64,000 nt of DNA from Thermoanaerobaculia bacterium (GTDB lineage: Bacteria > Acidobacteriota > Thermoanaerobaculia > UBA5066). The stretch is taken from positions 17,179 through 81,178 of the forward strand of contig DASXVJ010000017.1 in NCBI GenBank assembly GCA_036504335.1. Direction: 5' to 3'. The notes beneath the pieces are model-generated. The model was not told where the DNA came from. It saw only the letters and a list, made by a program, of their open reading frames with translations, and made no database searches. The first letter of the stretch is position 1. Every line of letters begins with the position of its first letter. This document shows positions 1,558 through 51,507 of this stretch, one piece after another. Made by a program: the position numbers and the translations under genes.

Positions 1558-2300
1558 CCGGGTTTTTCCGCGAGGATCAGCGCCGTCACGCCGAACGGCA
1601 GGCGCGCTTTCGCAACGAATCGGGCCTCCAAAGAAAGAAGAAAGAAGAAGATTTCTTCGAATGGTTCAGGAGCGAGGCCAAAATCGCTTCGAACTTCCTC
1701 GCGAGGACGGCCGCGCGCCTTCGCTCCCGTCACCTTTCTGAGAATCCCAATGGGGCCTGCCAGGAAGAAGTTAGCGTAGGTCGTGCGAACCACCGCGAGC
1801 CCGGCGTCTTTCACGAGCTTCTCGAGTCCTCCCGCCGTGTAGCGGCGCAGGGCGCCGACCGCGACGTCGTGCGCGCCCGCGAGGGCGTCGAACGCCGGCG
1901 CCGAGAGCGCGAGCGCCCCGCCCGGCGCGAGGACGCGCGTGATCTCGCGCGCGGCGCGGGCGTCGTCCGGCACCATGTAGAGGACGTCGCGCGAAAGCGC
2001 CGCCCGGAAGGTCGCGGCCCGGAACGGAAGGGCTTCGACCGATGCGCAAACGAGCGGCGCGGCCCCGCGGCGCCTCGCGAAACCGAGGGCGCGCAGCGAG
2101 ACGTCGACCCCCACCGCAGGGCCGCCGGCGGCGAGGTCCACGAGGTTGCGGCCGGTTCCGCAGCCGGCGTCGAGGGCGCGCGCGCCCGCGGCGCGCGTGA
2201 AGATTCCGGGCGCGAACGCGCGCGCGACCGCGCGCATCCCCCGATACCACCAGTACGCGTCCTCGCGGCCGAACATGATCTCGTATTCGCGGTCGTTCAT
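1524..2300 (-). CDS. Class I SAM-dependent methyltransferase. The C-terminal ~45 codons run through palindromic element copy A.
   Basis: LDAGCGTG glycine-rich SAM-binding motif; DVLYMVPD and LAPGGALALS motifs; ~200-aa Rossmann-type layout. The 3' end (nt 1615-1760) is the AT-richer element, read in frame as ...PFEEIFFFLLSLEARF... Confidence 0.7.
   Translation of the reverse strand: MNDREYEIMFGREDAYWWYRGMRAVARAFAPGIFTRAAGARALDAGCGTGRNLVDLAAGGPAVGVDVSLRALGFARRRGAAPLVCASVEALPFRAATFRAALSRDVLYMVPDDARAAREITRVLAPGGALALSAPAFDALAGAHDVAVGALRRYTAGGLEKLVKDAGLAVVRTTYANFFLAGPIGILRKVTGAKARGRPREEVRSDFGLAPEPFEEIFFFLLSLEARFVAKARLPFGVTALILAEKPGQGAGTSEAAK
1615..1760. repeat. Palindromic MITE-like element, copy A (in frame within the methyltransferase 3' end).
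   Basis: Polypurine head aaagaaagaagaaagaagaag + TIR-L GATTTCTTCGAATGG...; degenerate TIR-R ...CACCTTTCTGAGAATCC; local GC ~50 % vs ~70 % background. Confidence 0.6.
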
Positions 2301-2329
2301 CGGACTGGCTGCCTATAATCCGCCCGGTC

Positions 2330-3475
2330 GTGACCTCGCGCCAGCGTGTGATCGGAATGGGCCTCCTGTGGCTCGTTTGCGTGTGGGCCGTCGCGCTCGT
2401 CTCGCCCCGGATCGTCCCCTGGATGACCGGGACCAACCCGTGGACGTGGGACGTGGTTCGCCGCGTCACGCCGCTCACCCGCTGGGACTCGGGCTGGTAC
2501 GTGAACCTCGCCGAGGCCGGCTACTGGGAGCCCCCGACCCGGGTCGGACAGGAGACGAACCACGCGTTCTTTCCTCTCTACCCCGGCCTCATGCGCGGCC
2601 TCGTCCGGACGACGGGGATCGAGACGTCCCTCGCCGGGAATTTCGTCTCCGCCGCCGCGTTCCTCGCGGCCTTGCTTCTCTTCGCGGCGTGGACGAAGCG
2701 GCACTTCGGGGAGGAGCGTGTCCTGCCCGCGGTGCTCGTCCTGCTCGCGTTCCCGACGTCGTTCTTCTTCGCCACCGTGTACACCGAGGCGCTCGCCCTC
2801 GCGCTCGCCCTCGCGGCCGTGCTCTTCTTCGAGCGCGGCCGGCCGCTCGCCGGAGCCGCCGCGGGCGTCCTCGCGGGACTGACGCGGATCACGGGCCTCG
2901 TCCTCGCGCCGTACCTCGCGCTCGTCGCGTGGCGCGCGAGCCGCGAGGCCGGACATTCGGCCGGCCGGGCCGCGGCGCGCGCGGCGTTCGCGGGCGCCTC
3001 TCCGCTCGCGGGATTCGGCCTCTTCTGCCTCTATTTCTGGAGGCGCTTCGGCGACCCTCTCCTCTTCGTGAAGGCGCAGCACAACTGGAGCGGCCAGTCC
3101 AAGTCGATCTTCGACGGGCCGGCGCTCATCTGGCAGGCCGTCGTCGAGGACGTGACGCGCGGCCGGCTGCTCGGGGGCTCGCCCGCGCGGACGTTCGAAG
3201 GGCTCTATCTCCTTCTCTTCCTCGTCCTCGCGGCGGTCCTCCTCGCGCAGAAGCGGCGGCCCGAGGCGTTGTACGTCGTCCTCACCGTCGCGATCGTCCT
3301 CGCGTCCGGCACGCTCGAGAGCGCCGGCCGCTACGTGCTGCCCGCGTTCCCCGCATTCGCAGCGCTCGCCGGCCTCTCCGGCCGCCGCGGTTTCTTCGGC
3401 GCGCTCGTGGCGCTGAGCTCCGTCGCCGGCGCCCTCTACGTGTGGGCGTTCGTCCACTGGTACTGGGCCGGATGA
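2330..3475 (+). CDS. GT-C fold integral membrane glycosyl/mannosyltransferase (PIG-V / DUF2029-like).
   Basis: ~10 predicted TM helices; WDSGWYVNLAEAGY motif typical of PIG-V/bacterial mannosyltransferase families; divergent from the methyltransferase gene; 4-nt ATGA overlap with the downstream lipoprotein gene. Confidence 0.6.
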   Translation: MTSRQRVIGMGLLWLVCVWAVALVSPRIVPWMTGTNPWTWDVVRRVTPLTRWDSGWYVNLAEAGYWEPPTRVGQETNHAFFPLYPGLMRGLVRTTGIETSLAGNFVSAAAFLAALLLFAAWTKRHFGEERVLPAVLVLLAFPTSFFFATVYTEALALALALAAVLFFERGRPLAGAAAGVLAGLTRITGLVLAPYLALVAWRASREAGHSAGRAAARAAFAGASPLAGFGLFCLYFWRRFGDPLLFVKAQHNWSGQSKSIFDGPALIWQAVVEDVTRGRLLGGSPARTFEGLYLLLFLVLAAVLLAQKRRPEALYVVLTVAIVLASGTLESAGRYVLPAFPAFAALAGLSGRRGFFGALVALSSVAGALYVWAFVHWYWAG

Positions 3476-4260
3476 GAAGGACCGCCCCCCTCGCCGCCGC
3501 CGCGCTCGCCCTCGCGGGCCTCGGCTGCCGCCGGACGCCGGCGCCGTTTGGCGCGCACACCGCGTTCGTGCCGGTCGCGTTCCGGTCGAACAACCCCGGA
3601 CGGCCGCCGTGGGCGCCGAGGATCAGCGTGACGAATACGTCCGGCGCCCCGTCCACCGTGCGCCTGACCCGCTGGCCGCCGGACGCCGCCGATTCGGAGT
3701 CGACGCTCATCGGCCTGGCCGCCGGCGAGACGCGGCCCGTGCCTTCGCGCATTCCGCTCGCCAGCGTTTCCTCGTTCTTCTTCGAAGCAGGGTCTTCGTT
3801 CCTCGTCCGGGCGGAGATCGTCGACCGCCGGCGGATCGCCCCGTCACTCGCCGTGCCGGTCCTGAGAGCGGAGGACCTCGCGAGGCCGGGTGACCGTCTC
3901 ACGCTCGGGCCCATCGTGGACACGCCCGGGGAGCGCAGCCACTTCTGCTTCACGTACCCCGGCGTCGAGCGCGACGCCGTGCCTTTCCGCATTCACCTGC
4001 GGCTGACGGCGCCCGGCGGCGGCGCCCTCCTCTGGGAGGGAACGTTCGTCCTCACGGGGCTGCCCCTCGTGATCGACGACCCGTGGAAGCGCTTTCATCT
4101 CGCCCCGGGAACGGCGTTCGACGTCGACGTCGCGTTCCTCGGCAGCGCGAGGGGCCGCCCGGTCGCGCGAGGCATGTGGGTCTACGGCATCACGACCGAC
4201 CGCGCGACCGCGGCCTCGCGGTTCCTCGAGACGCGCGTCGTCCGCAGCTCAGCGCGCTGA
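3472..4260 (+). CDS. Hypothetical lipoprotein.
   Basis: N-terminus MRRTAPLAAAALALAGLGC has a lipobox (LAGLGC); ATG overlaps the stop of the upstream GT-C gene (ATGA); beta-rich sequence without low-complexity GC artefacts. Confidence 0.55.
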   Translation: MRRTAPLAAAALALAGLGCRRTPAPFGAHTAFVPVAFRSNNPGRPPWAPRISVTNTSGAPSTVRLTRWPPDAADSESTLIGLAAGETRPVPSRIPLASVSSFFFEAGSSFLVRAEIVDRRRIAPSLAVPVLRAEDLARPGDRLTLGPIVDTPGERSHFCFTYPGVERDAVPFRIHLRLTAPGGGALLWEGTFVLTGLPLVIDDPWKRFHLAPGTAFDVDVAFLGSARGRPVARGMWVYGITTDRATAASRFLETRVVRSSAR

Positions 4261-6116: not shown

Positions 6117-6148
6117 TGTATCGGGGGCGGCGGGTAGACTCCGCGGCC

Positions 6149-6586: not shown

Positions 6587-6620
6587 CGGCGACGCCGAAA
6601 TCTGCGATCCTCCGCGGCCC

Positions 6621-8255: not shown

Positions 8256-8262
8256 TCCGCGG

Positions 8263-10059
8263 ATGCCCAAGGCGCGTTTCGCGGCCGCCCTCGCGGTCCT
8301 GGCCTGCGTCGCCCTCGCCGGCGCCGAGCGGGCGCGCTTCGGCCTCTGGACGACGTCCGACGAGCCCCCGCACCTCGCGGCCGCACGCGAGTGGCGGTAC
8401 GGCCCCGGGATGGTCTCGAACTTCGAGCACCCCGTCCTCATGAAGGTGATCGCGGGCAGCACGCTCCCCGCGGCAAAACCCGAGCTCGAGATCGACGAGA
8501 CCCGCGCCGGTCGGGCGGCGATTCCGTTCGTCCTCGCGCTCCTCGTCGTCGCGACCGGTCTTCTCGGCCGGGCCCTGGCCGGACCGGCGGCCGGCCTCGC
8601 GGCCGCCGCGGTCCTCGGGGTCGAGCCGACGTTCCGGGGCCACGGCACGCTCGTCCAGAGCGACGTCCTTCTGACGCTCTTCCTCGTCGCGGCTGCATTC
8701 GCGCTCGCGAAGGGCGCGAACGGCGATCGGCGCTGGCTCGCCGCGAGCGGCGTCCTCTACGGCCTCGCGATGGCGTCGAAGTACTCGGCATTCCCATTCC
8801 TTCTCGTATTCGCTGCCGTCGCAGTTCTTCGGCTCGGAACGAAGAGCACCGGAAGATTTTCTTTGAAGGGTAAGAGGGGCCCGGACCAGCGCCCGCCCGC
8901 ACGACGCCGCGCCTCGGAGCGGGCAGCCGGCGCACGCCGCGAGCCGCTCTCTTCACCTTCAAAGAGATCTCTTCTCTTTTCTTCCGTCTCCCGGGTCCTC
9001 GTCTTCATCGTCCTCCCCGCGCTCGCGACGCTCGCGCTCGTCCAGCTCCTCGCGTACGCGGGCACCACGGACGCCGCGTTCCGCCAGGGCCTCCGCGCAG
9101 CGTTCGAGGGGCTGCCGCAGGAGGGCGCGGTCGTGGCCCTCGCAAAGAAGTTTCCGAAGTGGATTGCGGGCTACGGCGCCGGCCTTCTCTTCGTGCAGGG
9201 GGTCGCGGGGCCCGGCGAGCGCTTCAACTACTTCTTCGGCCTCGTGCGCGGGACGGGATCGCTTCTCTACTTCCCGGTCGCGCTCGGAATCAAGCTCACG
9301 GCGGCGGCCGTCCTCGCGTCCCTCGCCGCCGTTGCCTTTGCCGTCGCGGGCTTCTTTCGCGGCCCGGTCCTTCGCCGTCTGCTCACGGCGCGGGCGGCGC
9401 TGCCCGCGGCGCTCGGAGGCGCCTACCTTCTCGCCGCGTGCGTCTCGAACGTGAACATCGGCGTCCGCCACGCTCTGCCCGCCGTGCCGTTGCTCCTCGT
9501 CGCCGCGGCCGCCGCCGGACGCGCACTTCTCGCGACGCGTCACCGGACGTTCCGCGCCCTCGCCGCCGCCGTCGTGCTCCTCGCCGCCGCGGAGTCGGCC
9601 CTCCGCCTCGGGCGCGAGATCTCCTTCGGCAACGTCCTCGTGGGGGGGCCGGCCGGCGTGCCGCCGATCCTCTCCGATTCGAACGTCGACTGGGGCCAGG
9701 AGCAGGGCCTCGTCTTCGAACGCGTGAAGCGCGGAGACCTCGGCAGGGTGGCGATCGCGGCCCTCCTCGTCGACGAGACGGGAGCGACGCGCGCCGGAGT
9801 CCTGGGCCTCGCGCTGAGGGCGGACGCTGGCGCCGACACGATCTTCTTCTCGCGCTTCCTCTGGGACCTCGCCGCGGCGATCGAGAAGAACGGCGACATG
9901 TATTCGAAATTCGTCTGGTTGCGCGGCTGGCTTCCGCCGCTGCGGCGCGGGCTCGAGGCGCGCGCGACGTCGGTCACGCCGTTCGGCGACGCCTACCTTC
10001 TCCTGCGCCTCAGGCCGGCTACGGCCGCCCCGTCGTCAGCGCCCGGCTCCATTCCGTGA
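8263..10059 (+). CDS. GT-C fold membrane glycosyltransferase (ArnT/PMT-like), with in-frame insertion of element copy B.
   Basis: Multi-TM protein with the LAMASKYSAFPF motif; residues ...LGTKSTGRFSLKGKRGPDQRPPARRRASERAAGARREPLSSPSKRSLLFSSVSRVL... are encoded by the AT-richer palindromic element at nt 8838-8997. Confidence 0.65.
   Translation: MPKARFAAALAVLACVALAGAERARFGLWTTSDEPPHLAAAREWRYGPGMVSNFEHPVLMKVIAGSTLPAAKPELEIDETRAGRAAIPFVLALLVVATGLLGRALAGPAAGLAAAAVLGVEPTFRGHGTLVQSDVLLTLFLVAAAFALAKGANGDRRWLAASGVLYGLAMASKYSAFPFLLVFAAVAVLRLGTKSTGRFSLKGKRGPDQRPPARRRASERAAGARREPLSSPSKRSLLFSSVSRVLVFIVLPALATLALVQLLAYAGTTDAAFRQGLRAAFEGLPQEGAVVALAKKFPKWIAGYGAGLLFVQGVAGPGERFNYFFGLVRGTGSLLYFPVALGIKLTAAAVLASLAAVAFAVAGFFRGPVLRRLLTARAALPAALGGAYLLAACVSNVNIGVRHALPAVPLLLVAAAAAGRALLATRHRTFRALAAAVVLLAAAESALRLGREISFGNVLVGGPAGVPPILSDSNVDWGQEQGLVFERVKRGDLGRVAIAALLVDETGATRAGVLGLALRADAGADTIFFSRFLWDLAAAIEKNGDMYSKFVWLRGWLPPLRRGLEARATSVTPFGDAYLLLRLRPATAAPSSAPGSIP
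8838..8997. repeat. Palindromic MITE-like element, copy B (in frame within GT-C gene 8263..10059).
   Basis: TIR-L ATTTTCTTTGAAGGGTAAGAGGGGC, GC-rich core, TIR-R GCCGCTCTCTTCACCTTCAAAGAGATC, then polypyrimidine tail tcttctcttttcttcc. Confidence 0.8.
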
Positions 10060-11995
10060 GCGTCCAGCCGCGCTGACGCGCGACGGCGACGGCGCCCGCG
10101 AAGGCCTCGCGCTGCGCCTCCGGCAGGCACGCGAAGTCTCCGGGCGGCGTCGCCATCGCGTGGACGAACAGGATCCACGGATGGCAGGCGAAGGAAGGCG
10201 AAGAGGGAGAGGAAGAAAAGAGAGAAGACGAAGATTTCTTTGAAAGGTAAGAGAGGGAGACGGCGGCGCCCGAACCGAGGCGCAGCGACTCGGCCACCAG
10301 CGCGACCGTACGAGGGTCATTCGCAGAAATCCTCTCTTCTCTTCTCTCGAGCTCCCGACCCACGGCGCCTGCCCGCGCGAAGTCCTTCACGTCGATCGCC
10401 CGGACGAGCTGATCCCGGAGCGCGTCGAAATAGGGATCGGCCCAGCCGGGATCGACGGGGCGCCAGAAACCCGGGCGCGGCGCAGCGAGCGCCAGCCTCA
10501 GCGCCGGCGCCGGCTCGAGCGAGCGGGCGGGCCGGAACGGCGGGTCGAGCTGCGGGAGACTGCCGTCCCAGCCGCCCTTCATGCGGGCGGCGAGCGCGAG
10601 CGCGTGGACGCGGATGGGGCTCCACGCGGGCGTCAGCGAGAAGTGGTGGGGCGCGGTTGCGAGGAGCGAGCCATCGGGCGCCCGGGTGATCTCGTACGGC
10701 GTGCCCGCGGCTCGCGACTCCGCGATGGGCTGCGGGGAAACGAGCGAGGAAAGCGCGTAGACCGCGGCGAACGGCGTGAGCGCGCCGAGCGCGTTCACGC
10801 AGACGCCTGCCGCGACGGCGAACGCTCCCGGAACGCGCCACGAACGGCCGTCTCCCGTGAACGCGGCCCCGGCCAGAGCCACGAGGCACGGCAGGGCCGG
10901 AACGACGAGGCGTGGTCCCCATCCCGCCTGCCCGTCCCACGCCCACCACGCGGAAGACGCGAGGAGCAGCGCGAGCGCGGACGCGGCGAGCGCGAGCGCA
11001 AGCCGCGCGTCGCGGCGGCGCAGCAGCAGGAAGCCAGGGATCGCGAAGGCCGTGAGCGGCGCGTACCAGAGAAGGCCCTTGTTCGGGAGAAGCGTCAGCC
11101 GCAGGAGCCCGGTGAGGAGCGGGTACGTGAACGTCTCTCCCCCGTACCCGCCTCCGAGCTTCCCGAACCGGGTCCATTCGAAGATAGACCAGAGAAGAAG
11201 AATTCCTATGAAGGTGAAGAGCAAGGGAAATGGCAGTGCGAGTCGGGTGGCCAGAGGTGCGCCAGCCCGCGCCGCGCGCCGTCGCTCCGCCCTCCCGCCC
11301 TTGACGGGAGGCGGCCTTCCGGCCCTATTACCTTCAGAGAAATCCTCCTCTTCTCTCTTCCCGACGACCGCGCACGCGAGAAGAGGCGCCACGACGAGGA
11401 CGAGCAGCGTCTTCGTCAGGATGGCAAAGCCCGCCGCGGCGCCGAGGACGCCCTGCCAGAAGCGGGACGCCGGCGATTCGCGCAGCTCCACGAGCGCGAG
11501 GACGGACAGCGCGACGCAGAGCGCCTGCAGGGGCTCGCCGTAGTCGCTGCCCGCGTAGCCCCAGAGCGGCGTCGCGAGGACGAGCGCCGCGCCGCCCGCG
11601 GCCGCCGGAATCCGCGCGGCGCCGAGCCGTTCGAGCGTCCGCGCCGCCGCCCACGCGCAGCCCGCGAGGCAGAGGATCGGCAGGAGGACGAAGATCGGAG
11701 ACGTGCGCGCCCCGCCCGTCGCGCGCGCGACCGCCGCCGGAATCGCCTCGACGAGCGAGAGCCCCATCCCGTAGCGCGACACGGCGTCCCCGCCGGGCCG
11801 CCGCGGCGCGTTGACGAAGTCGCGCGACACTCCGATCTCGAAGAAGCGGGCGACGGCCGCACCGGCGGAGAGCATTTCCCTCCCGTCCGGAATCAGGCCG
11901 TACGAACGCCCGTCCACGGTCGCGAGCAGGACGGCGAGCGTCCCGAGCGCGGCGAATCCCGCCGCCCGCCCCGCGCCGTCAGACGCCCAGCGCAC
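10019..11995 (-). CDS. GT-C fold membrane glycosyltransferase with a C-terminal TPR-like region. It carries two in-frame element insertions (copies C and D).
   Basis: Multi-TM N-terminal half (ILTKTLLVLVVAPLL, WAWDGQAGWGPR) and a soluble C-terminal domain. It is a paralog of the genes at 43968..45932 and 54659..56185. Elements C and D supply ~60-residue in-frame segments. Confidence 0.65.
   Translation of the reverse strand: MRWASDGAGRAAGFAALGTLAVLLATVDGRSYGLIPDGREMLSAGAAVARFFEIGVSRDFVNAPRRPGGDAVSRYGMGLSLVEAIPAAVARATGGARTSPIFVLLPILCLAGCAWAAARTLERLGAARIPAAAGGAALVLATPLWGYAGSDYGEPLQALCVALSVLALVELRESPASRFWQGVLGAAAGFAILTKTLLVLVVAPLLACAVVGKREEEDFSEGNRAGRPPPVKGGRAERRRAARAGAPLATRLALPFPLLFTFIGILLLWSIFEWTRFGKLGGGYGGETFTYPLLTGLLRLTLLPNKGLLWYAPLTAFAIPGFLLLRRRDARLALALAASALALLLASSAWWAWDGQAGWGPRLVVPALPCLVALAGAAFTGDGRSWRVPGAFAVAAGVCVNALGALTPFAAVYALSSLVSPQPIAESRAAGTPYEITRAPDGSLLATAPHHFSLTPAWSPIRVHALALAARMKGGWDGSLPQLDPPFRPARSLEPAPALRLALAAPRPGFWRPVDPGWADPYFDALRDQLVRAIDVKDFARAGAVGRELERREERISANDPRTVALVAESLRLGSGAAVSLSYLSKKSSSSLFSSSPSSPSFACHPWILFVHAMATPPGDFACLPEAQREAFAGAVAVARQRGWTLTEWSRALTTGRP
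10190..10350. repeat. Palindromic MITE-like element, copy C (in frame within GT-C gene 10019..11995).
   Basis: Head gaagaaaagagagaagacgaag + TIR-L ATTTCTTTGAAAGGTAAGAGAGGG; TIR-R CATTCGCAGAAATCC + tail tctcttctcttctctc. Confidence 0.75.
11175..11365. repeat. Palindromic MITE-like element, copy D (second in-frame copy within GT-C gene 10019..11995).
   Basis: Head gagaagaagaa + TIR-L TTCCTATGAAGGTGAAGAGCAAGGG; ~100-bp GC-rich core; TIR-R GGCCCTATTACCTTCAGAGAAATCC + tail tcctcttctctcttccc. Confidence 0.75.
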
Positions 11996-12050
11996 CGGGC
12001 ACCAGCCAGAAAGCGTCGACTGTCACCGTGGAGATTCTACGGGCGGGCGT

Positions 12051-18103: not shown

Positions 18104-20593
18104 TCAGTCGCCGCCCTTCGCCCTGAGGCGAACCCACGCGGCGTTCACGGGCGCGGGCATCTCCGCGTCGCCTCCCCGCACGCTCTTCCAGATCGCCTCG
18201 TTGAGCGCGAGATCCGGCGCCGCGTCCTCCTTCGTGAAATCCCACGCGTTCGCCTCCGCCTGCATCGGCGCGCCGTCCGGGTTCATCTCGTAGAACGGGA
18301 TCTTCGTCTCGCGGTGGACGAAGGGCACGCCGTCCGGCGCGTCCGCGAAGGCGTGCGTCATCGGCGTCGCGGACGCGTCGTGCTGCGAAAGCGGCGGGAG
18401 GCCGAGGATCAGTTCCATCGTCCGGAGCATCGAGACCGTCGAGTACATCGTCGAGTCCACGAAGCCCTTCCGGCGCGTGTACGGCGAGATCACGAATCCC
18501 ACGGTCCGGTGCGCGTCGACGTGGTCCGAGCCGCTCTGCGCGTCGTCCTCGATCACGAAGATCGCGGTGTCCTTCCAGAACGGCGAATGCGAGATCGCCT
18601 CGACGAGGCGCCCGAGCGCGACGTCGTTCTCGGCGACCATCGCGCGCGGCGTGCGCTCGCCCTTTTTCGTCCCGGCCGTGTGGTCGTTCCCGAGGCGCAC
18701 GATCAGGAGGCGCGGCATCTCCTTCGCCTTGACGAACCCCCGGAACTCCTTCAGGAAGACGTCGACGCGCGCGTTGTCGAGGATGTCCATGTCGAAGCCC
18801 GGGTAGAAGGCGCAGGTCGCGCCCTCGAGCGCTCCCTCCATTCCCTTCGAGAGGCTCAGCACCGTGGGCGTCATCTCGGCCGCGACGCCCACGAACTCGC
18901 CGTAGTTCCGGAGCGTGAGCCCCGCCTTCGCGGCGGCGTCCCAGATGTAGCCGTTCGTCGGGAACGCGTTCGCGTCGTTGCCCTCGAAGAGGTAGTCGAA
19001 GCCCTTCGATCCGTAATCGGGCGGCCAGATCTTCTCGACGAAGTCCGTCGCGTACGCGGCCATCGACCAGTTGTGGCCGTCGGCCGACACCTCGGCGTCG
19101 CAGTAGAGGTTGTCGAGCAGGACGAACTCCTCGGCGAGGGCGTGGGCGTTCGGCGTCACGTCGCGCCCGAAGATCGTGAGCGCCGGATCGCCGTTTCCCA
19201 GCGGGAGGTCGCCGAGCACCTGGTCGTACGTGCGGTTCTCGCGGATGACGTAGACGACGTGCTGGATCGGAGACGCCCCGCCCGGCGCCGCCGGGACGAC
19301 GGCGGAGGCCTTCACCGGCTGCGCGCCGCGCGCCCCGGGACGACGGTTCGCATACGCGCGCGCCGTCGCCGCCGCGAGCGCCTTCGCCGACGGGACGTCG
19401 ATCCGCGACACAGAACCCGGAATCGTGCGCGTCTTCTTCCAGGGCTTCCCGTCTCCTTTCTTCGTCGGGTCCGGGCCGCCCACGGCGTTCGACCAGGACC
19501 AGCCGCCCTTCGCGTTCGCGACCCAGAGCGTCTTTCCATCCGAGGAGAGCGCGAGGGCGGCGGGATACCAGCCGCTCGGGATGAAGCCCCTCGTCCGGGC
19601 GGCTCGAAGATCGCCTCCGACGTCGACGACGGCCACGGCGTCGTCGTCGGCGTTCGCCACGTAGAGCGTTCGTCCGTCCGGGGAAAGCGCGAGCGCGTTC
19701 GGCGTCGAGCCGTCCGGGAGCGAGTCCGCCGACGGCGTGCCGGGGCCGTCGGGCCCCAGAGCGACGGAGATCTGCCGCGCGACCGTGCGCGAAGCGAGGT
19801 CGACGGCGGCGACGAGGTTGCGGTTCGACTGGGCGACGAAGAGCGTGCGGCCGTCGCGAGAGAAGAGCAGGTCCGAGGGGTGATCCGCGGTCTTCACGGT
19901 CGCGACGACGGCACCCGAGGCGGCGTCCACGAGCGTCACGGACGCGGCGCCCCAGTTCGCGACGGCGAGGAGCGTGCCGTCCGGCGAGAAGACCGGGCGG
20001 TAGGGGTGGACGCCGACCGGGACCGCGGCCGCCACGGTGCGCGACGCGAGGTCGACCCGGACGAGGTCGTTCAGCAGAATCCGCCCGGCCCACAGACTCT
20101 TCCCGTCGGCCGAGATCGCGAGGCCCGAGGGCGTCGCGTTCAGCTTGGCTGGTTCGTCCGGCCTGCGAAGGGAGAGGGGCTCCTCGGCGGCGAAGCGGTC
20201 GTTCTCGAGGCGGTAGACGAGGACGTTCTTCCCGCCGGCGCCCGCGAGGTACACGCGCTGTCCGTCCGGAGCGATCGCGAGGCCGAGCCAGGATTTCTTC
20301 ACGGGCTCTTTCGCGAGCAACTTCCCCGTCGCCGCGTCGAGAAGATGGAGCGACTGGTCGTCCGCCCCGGTGCACGCCGCGACGACGCGCTTTCCGTCCG
20401 GGGTGAGGGCGAGCGCGAAGGGATAGGGAGAGACCTCTGTCTGCGTTCCCGTCGGCGTCAGGAGGCGGCCGTTCGGCAGAAGCATCTCTCCCGTCGGGAG
20501 CTTCCCCGGGACGAAGCGCTCCGCGGCCGGGACGGAGGCCGGGAGAACGAGGACGAAGGCAAAGAGAAGATTTCTCAGAAGGTCGGACGGCAT
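18104..20593 (-). CDS. Secreted fusion of a YVTN-type beta-propeller (N-terminal) and a phosphoesterase (phospholipase C / acid phosphatase AcpA family, C-terminal).
   Basis: Repeated ~40-aa lactonase/YVTN blocks (LALSPDGRTLYVAN, LAISADGKSLW, VFSPDGTLLAVAN); phosphoesterase motifs VVYVIRENRTYDQVLGD, NYGEF, GNDHTAG. The signal peptide MPSDLLRNLLFAFVLVLPASVPAA is partly encoded by a half-element (copy E). Confidence 0.8.
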   Translation of the reverse strand: MPSDLLRNLLFAFVLVLPASVPAAERFVPGKLPTGEMLLPNGRLLTPTGTQTEVSPYPFALALTPDGKRVVAACTGADDQSLHLLDAATGKLLAKEPVKKSWLGLAIAPDGQRVYLAGAGGKNVLVYRLENDRFAAEEPLSLRRPDEPAKLNATPSGLAISADGKSLWAGRILLNDLVRVDLASRTVAAAVPVGVHPYRPVFSPDGTLLAVANWGAASVTLVDAASGAVVATVKTADHPSDLLFSRDGRTLFVAQSNRNLVAAVDLASRTVARQISVALGPDGPGTPSADSLPDGSTPNALALSPDGRTLYVANADDDAVAVVDVGGDLRAARTRGFIPSGWYPAALALSSDGKTLWVANAKGGWSWSNAVGGPDPTKKGDGKPWKKTRTIPGSVSRIDVPSAKALAAATARAYANRRPGARGAQPVKASAVVPAAPGGASPIQHVVYVIRENRTYDQVLGDLPLGNGDPALTIFGRDVTPNAHALAEEFVLLDNLYCDAEVSADGHNWSMAAYATDFVEKIWPPDYGSKGFDYLFEGNDANAFPTNGYIWDAAAKAGLTLRNYGEFVGVAAEMTPTVLSLSKGMEGALEGATCAFYPGFDMDILDNARVDVFLKEFRGFVKAKEMPRLLIVRLGNDHTAGTKKGERTPRAMVAENDVALGRLVEAISHSPFWKDTAIFVIEDDAQSGSDHVDAHRTVGFVISPYTRRKGFVDSTMYSTVSMLRTMELILGLPPLSQHDASATPMTHAFADAPDGVPFVHRETKIPFYEMNPDGAPMQAEANAWDFTKEDAAPDLALNEAIWKSVRGGDAEMPAPVNAAWVRLRAKGGD

Positions 20594-31734: not shown

Positions 31735-32156
31735 AGCGCTGGGCCGTCGTCCTGAACCATCTCGCGTGCCTCCTGGTCGGCCTCTCCGGCGTCGCCTACG
31801 GCGTCATGAAGTACTTCCTGTCCGGCGCGGACCCGGATTCTCGAGTCGGCCACCCGTGGCAACAGCCCATGCTGAAGGTCCACGTCCTCACGGCGCCGTT
31901 CCTGATCTTCGCGCTCGGCCTCGTCTTCAGCGGCCACGCGCTCCAGCGCTTCAAGGGCGGCGAGGACCCGGGCCGCGCGAGCGGCGCGGGCCTCCTCGGC
32001 CTCGCGGCGCCGCTCGTCCTGACGGGCCCGCTCATCCAGGTTCTCACCGGCGATGCCGCGCGGCAGTGGACGGGCTGGGCCCACGCCGCGCTCGGAGTCG
32101 TCTACGTCCTCGCGTACGCCGCGCACCTCCTCAAGAAGCGCCCGGGGGGCGCATGA
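31731..32156 (+). CDS. 4-TM His-rich membrane protein (DUF4405-like), putative b-type heme/electron-transfer subunit.
   Basis: Four hydrophobic helices with conserved His residues (HLACLL, VHVLTAPF, GHAL, AHLLKK); ATGA overlaps with both flanking genes. Confidence 0.5.
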   Translation: MKRWAVVLNHLACLLVGLSGVAYGVMKYFLSGADPDSRVGHPWQQPMLKVHVLTAPFLIFALGLVFSGHALQRFKGGEDPGRASGAGLLGLAAPLVLTGPLIQVLTGDAARQWTGWAHAALGVVYVLAYAAHLLKKRPGGA

Positions 32157-32395
32157 GCGCGCGACCTCACCCGGTCGCGGACGCGACGGCCGCTCCGCCG
32201 ATGACGGGGTGCGCCTGCACGGGGCGCTCGTTCGCCGAGGTTGAGCGACGCATGCACGGCGACCGTCTCCTGACGCTCGAGGCCGAGAGACTCACGGGGT
32301 GCGGCTCCCTCTGCACCGCGTGTCTCCCCGACCTTCGCGCATACTTGGTCCGGAAAACCGATCCGAGCCCCAAACAAGAATGGAGCGAATCATGA
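32153..32395 (+). CDS. bfd: Bacterioferritin-associated ferredoxin ([2Fe-2S] Bfd-like).
   Basis: CACTGRSF...TGCGSLCTAC matches the Bfd C-x-C...C-x2-C cluster pattern; 80 aa; immediately upstream of bfr. Confidence 0.7.
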   Translation: MSARPHPVADATAAPPMTGCACTGRSFAEVERRMHGDRLLTLEAERLTGCGSLCTACLPDLRAYLVRKTDPSPKQEWSES

Positions 32396-34324: not shown

Positions 34325-34747
34325 TCAGGCCACGTCGGCGAGGGTCGTCTTCTCGAGCTTCGTGGAGACGAAGTCCCGGATCTCCTTGAACACCTTCAGG
34401 AGCCTCTTCTCGCGCTCGACGGGCGTGGACTCGTAGAAGTACGTGCTGACGGAATCCGTCGGCGCGAGGGCGCCGTCCAGCAGCCGGACGACCTCGGCCA
34501 GCGTGATCTTCGACGCCGGGCGCCCGAGCCGGTAGCCGCCGTGCGGCCCCTTCTGGCTCCTCACGAGGCCCGCCCGCTTGAGGGCCATCAGCAGCTGCTC
34601 GAGGAACTTCGCGGGCAGCCCCTGCGCCTCGGCGATGGCCGAGACCGCGACGTACCCGCCGCCCTCGGCCCGCGCGAGGTGGACGAGCGCGAGGAGGGCG
34701 TATTCGCTGCGGCGGGTGAGCTTCACGGCGGCATTCTCTCGCGTCAA
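34325..34747 (-). CDS. Rrf2-family transcriptional regulator lacking the Fe-S Cys triad (CymR-like), divergent from the sulfate-uptake operon.
   Basis: KLTRRSEYALLALVHLA...HTH...GPHGGYRL Rrf2 signature; no CX6CX5C cluster. The start may be the GTG at 34726. Confidence 0.8.
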   Translation of the reverse strand: MTRENAAVKLTRRSEYALLALVHLARAEGGGYVAVSAIAEAQGLPAKFLEQLLMALKRAGLVRSQKGPHGGYRLGRPASKITLAEVVRLLDGALAPTDSVSTYFYESTPVEREKRLLKVFKEIRDFVSTKLEKTTLADVA

Positions 34748-34790
34748 TAGTACTTGACTTAGTTAGTGGGATAAATAATATAAAGAGAGA
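34740..34790 (-). promoter_or_regulatory. AT-rich promoter region and GTCAA-N6-TTGAC palindrome at the start of the Rrf2 regulator gene (divergent from sbp).
   Basis: GTCAATAGTACTTGAC (34743-34758) overlaps the TTG start; upstream (gene sense) ctttatattatttatccc contains TATATT/TATTAT -10-like hexamers. Confidence 0.3.
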
Positions 34791-34985
34791 GAAGAGAAGA
34801 ATTTCTTAGAGGGTAAGAGGGGCATGGAACCGAACGTTCAGAACTTGCCGCGGCGCGGCAACCGCCCCGCCGCCTCGAGCATCCCTCCAAAGCGCCGCCC
34901 CTTCGTGCGCGCCGCCGCGGCCGCAGCTCTTCTCCTCACCTTCAAAGAAATCTTCTTTCCCTCTTCTCTTTCTCTCGCGGCTCCT
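34782..34985. repeat. Palindromic MITE-like element, copy H (contains the sbp RBS, ATG and signal-peptide coding region).
   Basis: Head aaagagagagaagagaag + TIR-L AATTTCTTAGAGGGTAAGAGGGGC, immediately followed by the ATG of sbp; TIR-R CTCTTCTCCTCACCTTCAAAGAAATC + tail ttctttccctcttctctttctctc. Confidence 0.85.
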
Positions 34986-37606: not shown

Positions 37607-38325
<719 letters not shown>

Positions 38326-41027: not shown

Positions 41028-41158
41028 AGGGGCCCCTTCGCGTCATCCACCACTGCGCCGCGGGCCCTTGGCCTGAGACAGAGTCTTTGATCCAGTCGCA
41101 ATCTCACTTCCGTAGTGGTATGAAGACCCCCACCCATCGAGCGAAAAAAGGAGGCCCC

Positions 41159-41533: not shown

Positions 41534-41545
41534 TCCCGCACGTTC

Positions 41546-43208: not shown

Positions 43209-43212
43209 AGGC

Positions 43213-43446: not shown

Positions 43447-43457
43447 GTGGCCTCCGA

Positions 43458-43958: not shown

Positions 43959-43967
43959 GCCCGGATG

Positions 43968-46528: not shown

Positions 46529-46573
46529 CCCCCGGATGATGCCCGATCCCGCGCCTCCTGCTAAGGTCCGCCC

Positions 46574-47170: not shown

Positions 47171-47176
47171 GGGCCG

Positions 47177-49024: not shown

Positions 49025-49067
49025 GTGCGTTGCCCGGAGATTATGCCGAATCGCCGGGATTCGGCGC

Positions 49068-50273
49068 CTACAGCACCGTCAGGCCCACGGAAAGGACGTC
49101 CGCGCAGCCCGACCGGATGTCGTCGAGGACGGCCGGGCCCGGGCCCTGGTCGACCTGGATGCGGGCGCACGCGGCCTCGGCGCCGGCGAAGACGACGTTC
49201 TCGGTCTGCTGGACGTTGATCCCGGCGGCCCTGAGGACGCCGAAGACGTGCGCGAGGACGCCCACGCGGTCGCGGTGCCGCACGGTGAGGAGGTGAGTCG
49301 CGGGAGTCCGGCTCGCGAGGTTGACGGCGTTCGGGATCGCGCCCGTCGCCACGAACGCGGCGACGATGCGGACGGTCTCGGCCGCGATCGCGTTCTGCGC
49401 CTGGTCCGTCGAGGCGCCGACGTGGTGCGACCCGACGACGCCGGGGAACTTCACGATCTCGTCCTCGAACGTGCCGCTCCCGCCGGCAGGCTCCTTCTCG
49501 AAGACGTCGAGGCCGGCACGGACCCCGCGCTCCGCGATCGCCTTGCGCAGGGCGGCCGCGTCCACGATCTCGCCGCGGCTCGTGTTCACGAAGAAGGCTC
49601 CCGGCTTCAGCGCCTCGAAGAACTTCGCGTCCAGGAAGCCTTTCGTCTCCTTCGTGAGGGCGCAGTGGACCGACACCGCGTCCGAAGCGGCCGCGAGCGC
49701 GTGGATCGAGTCGGCGCGCGCCACGCCGAGCCGCTCGGCATGATCGTCGTCGAGCGAGCGGCTCCACGCGACGACGGGCATCCCGAACGCCTGTGCGCGC
49801 GTCACGACCTCGAGTCCGATCGCCCCGAGGCCGATCACGCCGAGCGTCCGGCCCGCGAGACCCTTCGCCTTGCCGTACTCGGCCTTGTTCCAGACGCCGT
49901 TCCGGAGATCGACGGCCTGATCGACGAGACGCCGGTCGAGCGCGAGCAGGAGCCCCCACGCCAGCTCGGCGACCGCGATCGCGTTCTTGCCCGGGCAGTT
50001 CGAGACCGCGACGGCCCGCGCGGAGGCGGCCGCGAGGTCGATCGTATTCACGCCCGCGCCGGCCCGGACGATCAGGGAGAGGCCGGAGGCCTTCTCGATC
50101 TCGGCCGCGGTCACCTTCGTCGAGCGGACGACGAGGACGTCGGCGCGCGACTCCGCGAGCCGGGCGCCGAGAGTCTCGCCCTCCAGCTTCGGCTCGTAAA
50201 GGACCTCGCAGCCGAGGCCCTTCAGCCCCTCGAGCCCGGCCTCCTCGAACTTGTCGGCGACGAGAACCTTCAT
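49068..50273 (-). CDS. serA: D-3-phosphoglycerate dehydrogenase with C-terminal ACT domain.
   Basis: MKVLVADKF..., NAD-binding GVIGLGAIG, catalytic NTSRGEIVD...HHVGAST, C-terminal ACT. Start at an internal ATG of the TTG-initiated 504-aa ORF. Confidence 0.85.
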   Translation of the reverse strand: MKVLVADKFEEAGLEGLKGLGCEVLYEPKLEGETLGARLAESRADVLVVRSTKVTAAEIEKASGLSLIVRAGAGVNTIDLAAASARAVAVSNCPGKNAIAVAELAWGLLLALDRRLVDQAVDLRNGVWNKAEYGKAKGLAGRTLGVIGLGAIGLEVVTRAQAFGMPVVAWSRSLDDDHAERLGVARADSIHALAAASDAVSVHCALTKETKGFLDAKFFEALKPGAFFVNTSRGEIVDAAALRKAIAERGVRAGLDVFEKEPAGGSGTFEDEIVKFPGVVGSHHVGASTDQAQNAIAAETVRIVAAFVATGAIPNAVNLASRTPATHLLTVRHRDRVGVLAHVFGVLRAAGINVQQTENVVFAGAEAACARIQVDQGPGPAVLDDIRSGCADVLSVGLTVL

Positions 50274-50280
50274 GCGCGCC

Positions 50281-51507
50281 TCAGAAGCGGTGGACGAAGA
50301 GGCCCGAACGCAGCTTCGGCTCGAACCACGTGGACTTCGGCGGCATCGTGACGCCCGCGTCCGCGATCGCCATGACGTCCGAGATCTGCGTCGGATACAT
50401 CGCGAACGCCACCGCGCCGCGTCCCGAGCGCACGCGCTCCTCGAGCTCCGAGGTGCCGCGGATCCCGCCGACGAAGTCGATCCGCGGGTCCGTGCGCGGA
50501 TCGCCGATGCCGAGGACGGGCGCGAGGAGACGGTCCTGGAGGATGGAGACGTCGAGGGCGGAAACCGGATCGTTTCCAGCAACCGGCTCGCGAGGGGTAA
50601 GGGTCTGCCAATTTTCTTTGAGGTAAAGAGAGAAGGTCCCGCGGCGGCTCGGCTCGGGCGCTTCGGCAGGCTTCACGTCGAACCGCTCTTTTACCTTTCT
50701 AAGAAAATCTTCTTCTCCCAGTCCCCCTAAATCCTTCACGACCCGGTTGTACGGGAGGATCGCGAGCTGGCGGTCCGGGAAGATCGCCGCCGGGAACCAG
50801 TTCACCGGGTGGTCGTCGGCGAGGGGTCCCTTCGCCGCGAGCGCCGCACGGGCGCGCGACGCGGAGGCGCAGCGGTGATGGCCGTCCGCGACGTAGAGGA
50901 GCGGCACCGCCGCGAACGCCGAGACGAAGAACGCGACGTCCGTCTCCGGGACCAGCCAGAGCGTGTGCCGGACCGCGTCGGGCGCCTCGAAATCGAACTC
51001 GGGCGCCTGCGCCGTCACGGCCGCGACGCGCGCATCGATCGCGTCGACGGCGCGGTACGTCAGGAAGACCGGCTCGGCGTGCGCGGACTGCGTCAGCAGG
51101 TGGCGGACGCGGTCGTCCTCCTTGTCCCTGCGGGTCTTCTCGTGCTTTCGGACGACGTCCGTGTCGTAGTCGTCCACGGAGCAGGCCGCCACGAAGCCGT
51201 CCTGCGACCGCCCTCTCCAGGTCTGGCGGTAGATGAGGAGGCGCGGAACGGGGTCTCCGACGAGCGTCCCGTCGGCGAAGAACCGGTCGAGATTCTCCCT
51301 CCCCTTCGCGTAGACCTCGTCGGCGTGGATGTCGGTCGTCTCGGCGAGGTCGATCTCGGGACGGCAGACGTGGAGGAACGACACGGGATTGCCGGCCGCG
51401 AGGGCGCGGGCTTCCTTCGTGTCGACGACGTCGTAGGGCACGGAGGCGACGCGCGCGGCGAGAGCCTTCGGCGGGCGGCCGGAACGGAATGGTCGAATGC
51501 GAGCCAT
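50281..51507 (-). CDS. DUF1015 family protein (conserved serA-linked protein), with in-frame insertion of element copy I.
   Basis: SVPYDVVDT and YVADGHHRCAS DUF1015 signatures. Residues ...VVKDLGGLGEEDFLRKVKERFDVKPAEAPEPSRRGTFSLYLKENW... are encoded by the palindromic element at nt 50595-50725. Confidence 0.8.
   Translation of the reverse strand: MARIRPFRSGRPPKALAARVASVPYDVVDTKEARALAAGNPVSFLHVCRPEIDLAETTDIHADEVYAKGRENLDRFFADGTLVGDPVPRLLIYRQTWRGRSQDGFVAACSVDDYDTDVVRKHEKTRRDKEDDRVRHLLTQSAHAEPVFLTYRAVDAIDARVAAVTAQAPEFDFEAPDAVRHTLWLVPETDVAFFVSAFAAVPLLYVADGHHRCASASRARAALAAKGPLADDHPVNWFPAAIFPDRQLAILPYNRVVKDLGGLGEEDFLRKVKERFDVKPAEAPEPSRRGTFSLYLKENWQTLTPREPVAGNDPVSALDVSILQDRLLAPVLGIGDPRTDPRIDFVGGIRGTSELEERVRSGRGAVAFAMYPTQISDVMAIADAGVTMPPKSTWFEPKLRSGLFVHRF
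50595..50725. repeat. Palindromic MITE-like element, copy I (in frame within DUF1015 gene).
   Basis: TIR-L AATTTTCTTTGAGGTAAAGAGAGAAGG; TIR-R CGCTCTTTTACCTTTCTAAGAAAATC + tail ttcttctcccagtcccc; no polypurine head on the left side. Confidence 0.8.

Follow-up and report, generated by a model that had tools for sequence, protein, structure and literature searches.

A family of short AT-rich repeat units, mostly in inverted pairs, in protein-coding genes of a high-GC Thermoanaerobaculia clade

The 64,000-nt stretch of Thermoanaerobaculia DNA analysed here (the window) is about 70% GC, and AT-richer, near-palindromic segments lie in its genes. The locus raises the question of what exactly is repeated, and how it came to lie in coding sequence with the reading frame kept. 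A preliminary description reported ten copies of a multi-copy palindromic family in coding genes of this 70% GC lineage. A profile built from the arms recovers exactly those ten sites, with 17 half-units (seven inverted pairs and three single units, none being expected by chance) and essentially no further matches. The 23-mer of the preliminary description, with up to three mismatches, gives three matches against 0.00 expected from shuffled sequence. The shared architecture is also borne out; a polypurine head, ATTTCTTTGAAGGTAAGAGGGG, a GC-rich middle, a complementary arm and a polypyrimidine tail are visible in the sequence and the alignment, and most sites are among the few 60-nt stretches of the window below 50% GC. 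The sites are as follows, inverted pairs being given without strand.

1633-1676, + strand (purine-rich on the + strand): single unit, profile match (E=9e-5), C-terminal tail of a methyltransferase gene.
8841-8985 (arms 8841-8879 and 8943-8985): inverted pair, profile and fold, GT-C/PMT_2 glycosyltransferase gene (GT-C1), 8263-10059 (+).
10217-10347 (arms 10217-10257 and 10316-10347): inverted pair, profile and fold, site 2 of a second GT-C gene (GT-C2), 10019-11995 (-), residues 550-593.
11182-11364 (arms 11182-11225 and 11320-11364): inverted pair, profile match, site 1 of GT-C2, residues 211-272.
20556-20588, + strand: single unit, profile match, overlapping the start and signal peptide (MPSDLLRNLLFAFVLVL) of a beta-propeller/phosphoesterase gene, 18104-20593 (-).
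29106-29150, - strand: single unit, profile match, inside ApbE (28737-29711, +), residues 124-138, SPSLFSFEESSSSVSR.
29580-29692 (arms 29580-29622 and 29668-29692): inverted pair, profile and fold, C-terminus of ApbE.
31096-31228 (arms 31096-31138 and 31180-31228): inverted pair, profile and fold, 5' end of the FMN_bind gene (TTG 31081-31734, +).
34782-34966 (arms 34782-34826 and 34930-34966): inverted pair, profile and fold, between the promoter and the mature domain of Sbp.
50589-50727 (arms 50589-50636 and 50682-50727): inverted pair, over native codons 260-307 of the DUF1015 gene, 50281-51507 (-).

As had been proposed, every copy falls within the open reading frame of an identified gene, or at its 5' or 3' edge, and leaves the frame intact; the frame in which the arms are read varies from host to host. 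The copy placed at 1615 by the preliminary description has one good arm, 1633-1676, which codes for ..LAPEPFEEIFFFLLS.. in the methyltransferase gene (1524-2300, -) and is also present in the close relative L063; it is not a full pair, as the possible partner near 1735-1757, found by eye, is only degenerate.

The repeated entity is the arm alone and not the whole hairpin. It spans about 40-50 nt and consists of a GA tract, GATTTCTTWGAAGG and TAAGAGGGG, in that order. The spacer between the arms, previously described as the variable core of a mobile unit of 110-200 bp, is host sequence; cores from non-orthologous loci show no likeness to each other (best similarity score 14.5 vs 12.5 for shuffles), and one core is a conserved AMP-binding C-terminal motif. 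Identity between arms is 0.56 within an element and 0.60 between elements, the arms resembling the family consensus and not their own partner. Over 86 units, mean complementarity is 22.3 on the side of the expected partner vs 14.3 on the control side. A common inverted-repeat consensus around locus-specific intragenic segments, conserved at the nucleotide level regardless of reading frame, would suit intragenic invertons, in which the arms are the sites of a global invertase that flips a gene segment of 45-140 bp and so switches or recodes the host protein; inversions within genes, with inverted repeats on either side, have been described in other bacteria (PMC10028968). We regard this as very improbable. 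No assembly has an inverted core (the 16 clade-A DUF1015 genes are all collinear, as is every orthologous core), partner arms are only ~56% identical, there is no recombinase nearby, and flipping would scramble conserved enzyme cores.

The preliminary description held that the copies are in-frame insertions. This is true in part: extra sequence relative to orthologs is found at GT-C1 (+96 nt), GT-C2 (+48 and +21), FMN_bind (+90) and in the Sbp leader, but not in DUF1015 or ApbE. In GT-C1, the 5' arm and 50 nt of the core make up the 96 nt (32 aa) missing from L063, which is 91% identical at the nucleotide level. The window and L063 share the 3' arm, which covers a native loop when compared with a 52%-identical homolog. 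At site 1 of GT-C2, the purine arm that is 5' in the gene sense (KREEEDFSEGNR) is a 48-nt indel with a further 21 nt in the core, and is missing from L063 and from P0253, P0255, P0258 and P0270; the gene-sense 3' arm codes for a native membrane helix, PLLFTFIGILLLW, with the invariant W269. Site 2 lines up approximately with native residues of distant homologs, and its core carries an insertion that ranges from 0 to 17 aa among relatives. In FMN_bind, the 5' arm and core form a 90-nt in-frame insertion in the N-region of the signal peptide; the window and L059 alone have it. The hydrophobic region is formed by the 3' arm (LTFKEISLSFLF), which is kept in L059, L061 and L062 and degenerate in L060. 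Of the two Sbp arms, L062 has the 3' one alone (exactly 45 nt) and L060 has neither; the window, L059 and L061 carry both. The indels at these four sites are thus 45, 48, 21, 90 and 96 nt; as every one is a multiple of three and the arms contain no in-frame stops, the units are read through by the ribosome. Two copies had also been thought to donate a ribosome-binding site and start codon. The GTG at 31136 that follows the FMN_bind arm opens another frame, which ends at a TAA, and the gene in fact starts at TTG 31081, located 5' of the element; such donation is therefore possible at best for the Sbp copy, where the -10 hexamer of the promoter ends at 34781 and ATG 34824 and GTG 34905 are candidate starts.

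DUF1015 is a case of the opposite kind. The gene shows no length change at the element site compared to 80+ homologs down to 41% identity, and every homolog down to 41-53% identity has native residues where the two arms lie. The AT-rich motif codons occur only in a clade with at least 78% identity. The third-position A/T fraction peaks at 0.5-0.6 in the arms vs a gene mean of 0.12, in clade A only, and the arm is present in 14 of 15 clade-A loci. The motif GATTT(T)CTTAGAA(A)GGTG is found in two reading registers, one in each of two subclades. Derived amino-acid replacements fall on 9 of 25 arm codons vs 14 of 368 codons elsewhere (p=1.7e-6). In these alignments, the arms have replaced native codons at the cost of amino-acid changes at conserved positions. 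Native sequence is likewise replaced in ApbE, the GT-C2 helix and the GT-C1 loop. The internal ApbE unit (29106-29150) recurs at this position in L059-L062. Aligned with solved ApbE structures, it leaves a gap of at most one residue and thus overwrites native sequence rather than being inserted. The C-terminal ApbE pair, orthologous in L059-L062, lies just 5' of where the next gene has its ribosome-binding site and GTG (29708), and its arm 29580-29622 covers native C-terminal residues. Intermediate cases are an MBL-fold enzyme (+3 and +11 aa) and ProRS (+6 aa). Orthologs with native residues at the element positions, which the preliminary description had itself named as evidence against insertion, were found for the DUF1015 arms, the internal ApbE arm and the 3' arms of GT-C2 and GT-C1.

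These alignments bear directly on the model of the preliminary description, in which non-autonomous MITEs or RPE-like palindromes of 110-200 bp transposed whole and in frame and their cores have since diverged. Terminal inverted repeats that fold as hairpins, a multi-copy and lineage-restricted family, and in-frame extra sequence at GT-C1, GT-C2, FMN_bind and Sbp are what such a model predicts, and RPEs too are old and found at orthologous positions (PMC10969869). It is nonetheless unlikely in our view, since the cores are host sequence unrelated among loci and DUF1015, with arms and core native in register at unchanged length, contradicts it. Net length gain is continuous, from 0 to about 32 aa. 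Polymorphisms take away one arm and never the whole element, no whole-element presence/absence polymorphism being seen among the compared orthologous loci. A consistent target-site duplication was not found at the compared sites; nor did a search of ~0.8 Mb, which covered the cognate transposase suggested earlier, find an enzyme, donor, autonomous element or partner transposase. With sites orthologous across genomes, the family shows no sign of the recent movement that the word mobile would imply.

An exact 20-mer search of 185,579 species genomes gave 54 matches. About half are in 15 high-GC Thermoanaerobaculia/Acidobacteriota assemblies, all 15 at species level, with partners nearby; the rest stand alone and come almost entirely from low-GC genomes. 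The unit sites of the window recur orthologously in L059-L063, and no units were found in 145 kb of sister-clade loci or in L057 or L064. This distribution indicates that the units were present in the common ancestor of one Thermoanaerobaculia clade and are old and vertically inherited at orthologous sites. Loss is piecemeal. At four of the four polymorphic sites examined, the missing arm is one coding for a dispensable charged loop, and the one retained overlaps a hydrophobic helix or a signal peptide; singlets at other loci show no orientation bias, based on rough gene calls. Arms have been lost repeatedly without obvious replacement. We estimate that ~70% of the A/T third positions in arms would survive neutrally. 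The clade is shallow, and preservation of the arms may reflect purifying selection or slow neutral decay alike, in a functional element or a relic.

Overwriting of coding DNA by substitution, in several frames and with tolerable peptides, at orthologous sites common to related species, matches the description of DNA uptake sequences (PMC2817400). By analogy, biased uptake or recombination would favour DNA carrying the motif, which point mutations then accumulate. Uptake sequences have a density of about one per kb (1,471 and 1,892 per genome; PMC2817400). The units are sparse and patchy, the clade-A flanks (~110 kb, unbiased) giving three matches, the DUF1015 site aside, vs nine sites in 35 kb of the window. 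They are also mostly paired and 40-50 nt long, and true insertions of 45-96 nt exist; such a molecular drive is highly unlikely here.

All seven pairs fold as long hairpins, as the preliminary description had anticipated, five of the seven with z-scores between -2 and -7 compared to shuffled sequence. In the mRNA, the hairpin could serve in processing or stability, or mask the region where translation starts; of the two arms, the purine one looks like a ribosome-binding site and the pyrimidine one like the 16S rRNA sequence complementary to it. Stems this long and stable (z-scores down to -7) are in line with such a role, several pairs enclose a translation start or lie next to one (Sbp, the junction of ApbE and the next gene, the L050/L051 site), and the Sbp transcript would start with the purine arm. 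A sense-strand G·U bias is however absent (107 sense vs 95 antisense, p=0.44), partner arms show neither excess similarity nor compensation, the arms of DUF1015 orthologs are often unpaired with a fold z-score of ~0, Rfam has no matching family for the element, and many copies are singlets or in mid-gene. We therefore consider action at the RNA level improbable, and infer that the drive acts on the DNA sequence and neither on the protein nor on an mRNA hairpin.

A drive on DNA could reflect function. The units would then be cis-acting signals, paired recognition sites for a clade-specific DNA-binding protein (a regulator, nucleoid protein or domesticated transposase), maintained and in some cases created by selection. 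Overwriting of DUF1015 codons despite the cost to conserved residues, retention of the motif in two registers, likeness of the arms to the family consensus rather than to their partner, and conserved site positions across genomes all argue for it. The unit core also has dyad symmetry (TTCTnAGAA or TTCnnnGAA), and about half of the sites are at gene 5' ends, operon junctions or domain linkers. On the other side, the conserved 40-50 nt with a long GA tract far exceed a usual operator, the centre-to-centre spacing of the inverted doublets is continuous (71-165 nt) without helical phasing, the host genes are functionally diverse, lost arms are not obviously replaced, no candidate binding protein was found, and the depth of the clade makes conservation indistinguishable from inertia. 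We regard a cis-acting signal as possible, although rather doubtful.

The explanation that we favour, tentatively, is an old, lineage-specific DNA-level repeat of REPIN/RPE-like character that spread by short-patch copying and is tolerated in frame, not a classical mini-transposon. Units entered genes either by short in-frame insertion (net gain 3 to about 32 codons) or by replacing native codons at unchanged length. Most likely, the unit would have spread as a selfish or commensal sequence through short-patch ectopic copying, guided by microhomology and resembling gene conversion; the family may have been seeded by a sequence-specific DNA enzyme comparable to the REP-associated transposases. 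Selection on the host proteins would then have left only in-frame, chemically compatible outcomes, with purine arms giving charged loops or helices and pyrimidine arms giving Leu/Phe/Ser-rich helices, strands and signal peptides. Ectopic copying is proposed only to reconcile insertion with overwriting, and we know of no established precedent in bacteria at ~55-63% local identity. Positive selection for a functional pair of binding sites explains the overwriting of DUF1015 at least as simply.

Several known systems share part of this pattern. Intragenic invertons also have inverted repeats in genes around a short locus-specific segment (PMC10028968), but no assembly here has a flipped orientation and no invertase was identified. 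Correia, ERIC and Nezha MITEs resemble the pairs in terminal inverted repeats, hairpin potential and small size, and some bacterial MITEs occasionally fuse in frame with host ORFs (PMC10969869); internal sequence of their own, target-site duplications and whole-element presence/absence are MITE traits not found here. USS/DUS likewise come to lie in coding DNA through substitutions, in several frames with acceptable peptides, and are common to related species (PMC2817400); their cores are 9-12 nt, about one per kb and mostly single, whereas the units are 40-50 nt, patchy, mostly paired and in some cases true insertions. RPEs too are palindromic repeats of ~100-150 bp in unrelated coding genes, read in frame, old and at orthologous positions, with a tolerated extra peptide (PMC10969869). 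However, RPEs are whole inserted units, each coding for a conserved peptide, in AT-rich obligate intracellular hosts; in this 70% GC free-living Acidobacteriota only arms of ~45 nt repeat around a host-derived middle, are read in different frames and in several cases overwrite native residues without insertion. REPINs, the REP doublets mobilised by RAYT transposases, differ in being extragenic and GC-rich, with a few discrete spacing classes and a spacer that belongs to the element, compared to intragenic, AT-rich units in a GC-rich genome with continuous spacing over native coding sequence. What they have in common with the units is the inverted doublet, singlets that look like decaying remnants, and long-term vertical inheritance within a lineage (PMC3337134).

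At about 70% GC overall, the window has few 60-nt stretches below 50% GC, and the reported sites lie mostly among them. Ten sites share one layout, a GA-rich head, ATTTCTTTGAAGGTAAGAGGGG, a GC-rich middle, the complementary CCCCTCTTACCTTCAAAGAAAT and a polypyrimidine tail. After reverse-complementing the right arms, all 17 were aligned and a profile was built from the alignment. Searching the window with it recovered exactly those 17 half-units (E-values 5e-6 to 0.05), arranged as seven inverted pairs and three singles; the single extra match was at noise level (E = 6.3). The 23-mer of the preliminary description has 0.00 matches expected from shuffles. All seven pairs, whose arms are inverted repeats by alignment and profile, fold as long hairpins. 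Profile recovery, shuffle expectation and folds together confirm that a multi-copy palindromic family occupies the ten sites. A generic inverted-repeat search picked up nothing but GC-rich chance pairs and overlooked the family, so that the purpose-built arm profile was required. Rfam covariance models gave no match at the gathering score across the 64-kb window.

Eight of the ten window sites lie wholly within coding sequence. The hosts, as assigned by Pfam, and one neighbouring gene are:

8263–10059, plus strand, GT-C/PMT_2 glycosyltransferase (GT-C1), with a pair at 8841–8985
10019–11995, minus strand, second GT-C/PMT_2 glycosyltransferase (GT-C2), convergent with the first, with site 1 at 11182–11364
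28737–29711, plus strand, ApbE
29708–31084, gene downstream of ApbE, without a Pfam match; its start follows closely on the C-terminal pair of ApbE
31096–31228, pair in the gene of an FMN_bind protein
34782–34966, pair in Sbp
50281–51507, minus strand, DUF1015 protein, with a pair at 50589–50727
further hosts: a methyltransferase and a secreted beta-propeller/phosphoesterase

Translation of the host ORFs shows that the arms are read in differing frames, one arm giving several peptides (EEDFSEGNR, GRFSLKGKR or ERISAND; LTFKEI, SLSYLSKK or PLLFTFIG). The earlier statement that units sit within ORFs with the frame kept holds for these translations and also for the indels between orthologs, which measure 45, 48, 21, 90 and 96 nt, all multiples of three. 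The core of the unit contains only a short dyad, TTCTnAGAA or TTCnnnGAA, and no GTAG or CGTC head was seen in the units. In two copies the host start codon had been described as following the arm; at the FMN_bind gene, the GTG after the arm is out of frame, and the true start is a TTG at 31081 that overlaps the upstream stop codon.

The segments between the arms are not shared. Cores of non-orthologous pairs reach a maximum similarity of 14.5 against 12.5 for shuffles, and high similarity is found only between orthologous loci of different genomes. The cores in the DUF1015 and AMP-binding genes are native coding sequence, the latter encoding the conserved AMP-binding motif LAKYKVPR..LPRT..GKV. 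As non-orthologous cores are unlike each other, the repeated entity is the arm of approximately 40–50 nt; the 110–200-bp element with its own variable core, as first envisaged, dissolves into host sequence that is unrelated between loci. Arm identity within an element is 0.56, compared with 0.60 between arms of different elements. Birth of the partner arm by inverted duplication was rejected, since the similarity between partners does not exceed that between arms of different elements. The spacing of the arms (71–165 nt) shows no helical phasing, and DNA looping with such phasing was likewise discarded.

DUF1015 is the decisive case. The window protein was compared with 120 close homologs, 80 metagenomic loci (53–90% identity) and representatives at 41–56% identity. 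Homologs are all about 400–420 residues long, and the window protein aligns with them across the arms without any net gain or loss of residues. The segment ..LNGLTPEQFLAKVGEKFEV..ASFGMYLQGKWYTL.. belongs to the native protein across phyla, and AT-rich, motif-like codons at the arms are found only in clade A, the unit-bearing clade (at least 78% DUF1015 identity). Clade A has GAA GAT TTT CTT AGA AAG GTG where the sister clade, the relatives without units, has GAG GGC TTC CTC GCC GAG GTG. The fraction of A/T third positions in clade A peaks at 0.5–0.6 in arm 1 and 0.3–0.35 in arm 2 (gene mean 0.12); in the sister clade it is flat at 0.06. Third-position identity within clade A is 0.74, a divergence too shallow to exclude neutral persistence, and we therefore do not claim purifying selection on these positions. 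Amino acid changes on the clade-A branch affect 9 of 25 arm codons as compared with 14 of 368 codons elsewhere (odds ratio 14, p = 1.7e-6), including residues conserved in all other clades; MYLxGxW, for example, is replaced by LFFEENW. The nucleotide motif GATTT(T)CTTAGAA(A)GGTG occurs in two subclades in two registers (KEDFLRKVRER and TGDFLEGVRKR), from which it follows that the nucleotide sequence is kept and not the peptide. Overwriting at conserved residues and survival of the motif through a register shift imply that a force on DNA sequence must override protein constraint. To our knowledge, a force of this kind is hardly documented beyond DNA uptake sequences. The surroundings of this gene, whose family is of unknown function, form a conserved neighbourhood (window 49068–51900, and the loci L001 and L056–L058); serA, D-3-phosphoglycerate dehydrogenase with an ACT domain, always lies 8–60 nt downstream, and a small RRM_1 RNA-binding protein always precedes DUF1015 on the opposite strand.

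Native residues are also overlaid outside DUF1015. At GT-C2 site 1 the 3′ arm encodes the native helix PLLFTFIGILLLW, which includes the invariant W269 and aligns without gaps to homologs of 48–54% identity. The 3′ arm of GT-C1 overlies a native loop, and the internal arm and first C-terminal arm of ApbE align almost gaplessly to solved ApbE structures. Two cases are intermediate, an MBL-fold enzyme with +3 and +11 residues relative to human NAPE-PLD and a ProRS with +6 residues, exactly the motif core LPFKEN. In the NAPE-PLD-like enzyme of locus L035 (2900–2960), the polypyrimidine tail of one arm has grown into 14 consecutive serines encoded by TCN repeats, which adds 11 residues compared with the human structure 4qn9. 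Neither cores of host sequence nor overwriting of zero length can be accounted for by a cut-and-paste MITE.

True insertions exist alongside. Relative to L063, a syntenic locus with 91% nucleotide identity, GT-C1 is longer by 96 nt, made up of the 5′ arm and 50 nt of core; at GT-C2 site 1 the excess is 48 + 21 nt. Several relatives lack the 5′ arm at this GT-C2 site and more distant ones have it; its absence is thus a loss. The 3′ ends of the two GT-C genes overlap by 41 nt (window 10019–10059), an arrangement kept in L063 (11790–11830). The FMN_bind gene has a 90-nt in-frame insertion in the N-region of the signal peptide, found only in the window and in the syntenic locus L059. In Sbp, whose mature domain begins at residue 57, three genomes carry both arms; L062 has the 3′ arm alone, as exactly 45 nt, and L060 has neither. 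The polymorphisms take out one arm with part of the core, and one-arm states arise by deletion. At all four indel sites the retained arm codes for a hydrophobic helix or signal-peptide segment. By-eye inspection of the indel junctions revealed no consistent direct repeat. Insertion relative to orthologs, which had been claimed throughout, therefore stands for the 5′ arms of GT-C1, GT-C2 site 1, FMN_bind and Sbp, and falls for DUF1015, the internal arm of ApbE, the GT-C2 helix and the 3′ arm of GT-C1, all native residues. The pyrimidine sense-strand arm was considered as the primary unit and rejected, as singlets in 34 loci comprise about 10 purine and 8 pyrimidine arms (rough gene calls); strand asymmetry is seen only in the identity of the lost arm at the four polymorphic sites that were aligned.

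In the divergent intergenic region between an Rrf2 regulator and Sbp (window 34747–34830; L059–L062), a promoter or operator, ATAATACTTGACTnnnnnnGTGGGATAAATAATATAA, is strongly conserved; its −35 is TTGACT and its −10 TAATAT. The Sbp start lies 8 nt after the −10 in L062 (GTG) and 7 nt after it in L060 (ATG), and these mRNAs would be leaderless or nearly so. In L060 (10772–10840) only MLATLAVVT precedes the mature LLNVSYDP, so that this periplasmic binding protein lacks a credible signal peptide. This gene may be a deletion derivative from which both arms have been removed.

We tentatively favour a selfish or commensal repeat resembling REPINs and RPEs. Short-patch ectopic conversion guided by microhomology would copy units into sequence that is already partly similar, a mode of spread that we infer, and selection at the protein level would then filter the outcomes. 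Such a filter would place purine arms in charged loops and helices and pyrimidine arms in Leu/Phe/Ser-rich segments, with net gains of 0 to 32 codons and loss of the dispensable arm. The chief alternative is that selection maintains the units as a functional pair of sites for protein binding. It would explain the overwriting of DUF1015 more simply; it fits less well with a length of 40–50 nt, diverse hosts and repeated losses, and we consider it rather unlikely.

Mismatches and folds bear on whether the units act as DNA or as RNA. G·U and A·C mismatches number 107 and 95, with no sense-strand bias (p = 0.44), and in DUF1015 orthologs the arms are often unpaired, with fold z-scores about 0. The arm identities, the lack of G·U bias, the non-pairing in DUF1015 and the unphased spacing all argue against a selected mRNA hairpin, which was rejected, and for the DNA sequence of each unit. 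No transposase or recombinase was present among the window ORFs scanned. In 0.78 Mb of loci, arm pairs 0.3–4 kb apart, as expected of a candidate autonomous element, were only combinations of separate elements, so these loci offer no such candidate. No inverted core was seen in 16 clade-A DUF1015 genes or in orthologous loci, all consensus assemblies, which hide minority orientations. The lone reverse-complement match, between loci L009 and L015, came from a contig in opposite orientation and was dismissed as a sign of core inversion. Neither invertons nor RNA elements have positive evidence. More speculatively, the units might not be relics. An active, clade-specific system might write a DNA signal of about 45 nt as inverted pairs, by substitution and short insertion, with a dedicated enzyme (a domesticated transposase or recombinase) that recognises the pairs and possibly inverts, excises or converts the 45–140-bp segment or nucleates a protein–DNA complex. 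We regard this as distinctly unlikely; if true, genes across the genome would carry an intragenic signal of a new kind, around which protein sequence evolves.

The range of the family was scanned with an exact 20-mer, one genome per species, giving 54 loci. About half belong to 15 Thermoanaerobaculia/Acidobacteriota assemblies of 65–73% GC and have partner arms and further units nearby; the remainder are lone matches, nearly all in low-GC genomes. The window's own assembly belongs to Thermoanaerobaculia (protein record P0121). Units occupy matching positions in syntenic loci of five other genomes (L059–L062 and L063), and the DUF1015 arm was detected in 14 of 15 clade-A loci. They are absent from 145 kb of sister-clade loci and from the loci L057 and L064. 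Unbiased clade-A flanks, the DUF1015 site itself aside, contain 3 matches in roughly 110 kb as compared with 9 sites in 35 kb of the window, and this sparseness makes the family patchy. A drive resembling an uptake signal is disfavoured, as density is low and patchy and the units are paired. By extrapolation, copy number would be on the order of 100 per genome. An envelope-gene regulon was rejected, as hosts elsewhere include UDG, ProRS, SpoU, MeaB and AMP-binding enzymes. Matches among viral contigs were chance hits in AT-rich phages, apart from one contig of 67% GC (L145), and a phage origin was rejected. L145 has a good repeat unit at 3454–3489 and may be either a prophage or a chromosomal piece from this clade that was misclassified. 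We hold with high confidence that the family is old and clade-specific, made of units of about 45 nt that mostly form inverted doublets around host sequence, are translated through, are inherited vertically and are lost piecemeal.

In-frame palindromic repeats in genes have so far been a hallmark of Rickettsia. They are not confined to reduced, AT-rich genomes; a free-living lineage of 70% GC has them, in glycosyltransferases, signal peptides and core enzymes. The units also serve as a sharp clade marker, and they produce annotation artefacts in high-GC metagenome assemblies (fused ApbE genes, wrong starts and inflated signal peptides). Public gene calls P0136, P0151, P0169, P0189, P0195, P0197 and P0198 fuse ApbE to the downstream 450-residue protein (window 28737–31084) into products of 708–752 residues. 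This is an artefact of such assemblies, probably caused by the repeat-bearing junction remaining open in frame. The operon is conserved (window 28737–32200; L059–L062) and comprises ApbE, a secreted protein of 458 residues (29708–31084), the FMN_bind protein and a protein of about 145 residues, which suggests a flavinylated extracytoplasmic redox module with an uncharacterised large subunit.

Searches of the full-text literature brought up no account of such elements from Thermoanaerobaculia or Acidobacteriota. The units share terminal inverted repeats and hairpin potential with MITEs. MITEs derive their internal sequence from a parent insertion sequence and leave whole-element empty sites with target-site duplication; here, non-orthologous cores are at shuffle level, indels involve one arm and DUF1015 shows no length change. 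RPEs, with which the family was compared by description, are likewise palindromic repeats within ORFs with the frame kept, and are in-frame, old and orthologous (PMC10969869), but any one RPE family specifies a single conserved peptide, always in the same frame, whereas these arms give several peptides and two registers in DUF1015. REPINs pair inverted units around a variable spacer, have singlets that decay and are inherited vertically (PMC3337134); the present units match them in two short inverted units, variable spacer, hairpin, vertical inheritance and one-arm states from deletion, although REPINs are extragenic and most of the window sites are wholly coding. Uptake sequences overwrite coding DNA (PMC2817400), and the motif in DUF1015 was similarly made by substitution without length change. 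Their density is high and rather even, at about one per kb, unlike the 3 per roughly 110 kb of clade-A flank. As in intragenic invertons, inverted repeats flank a segment within a gene. The family thus lacks at least one defining feature each of RPEs, REPINs and uptake sequences, its nearest known counterparts. Its unusual feature, which is well supported, is the overwriting of native codons; unlike RPEs and MITEs, this dispersed repeat can do so with protein length unchanged.
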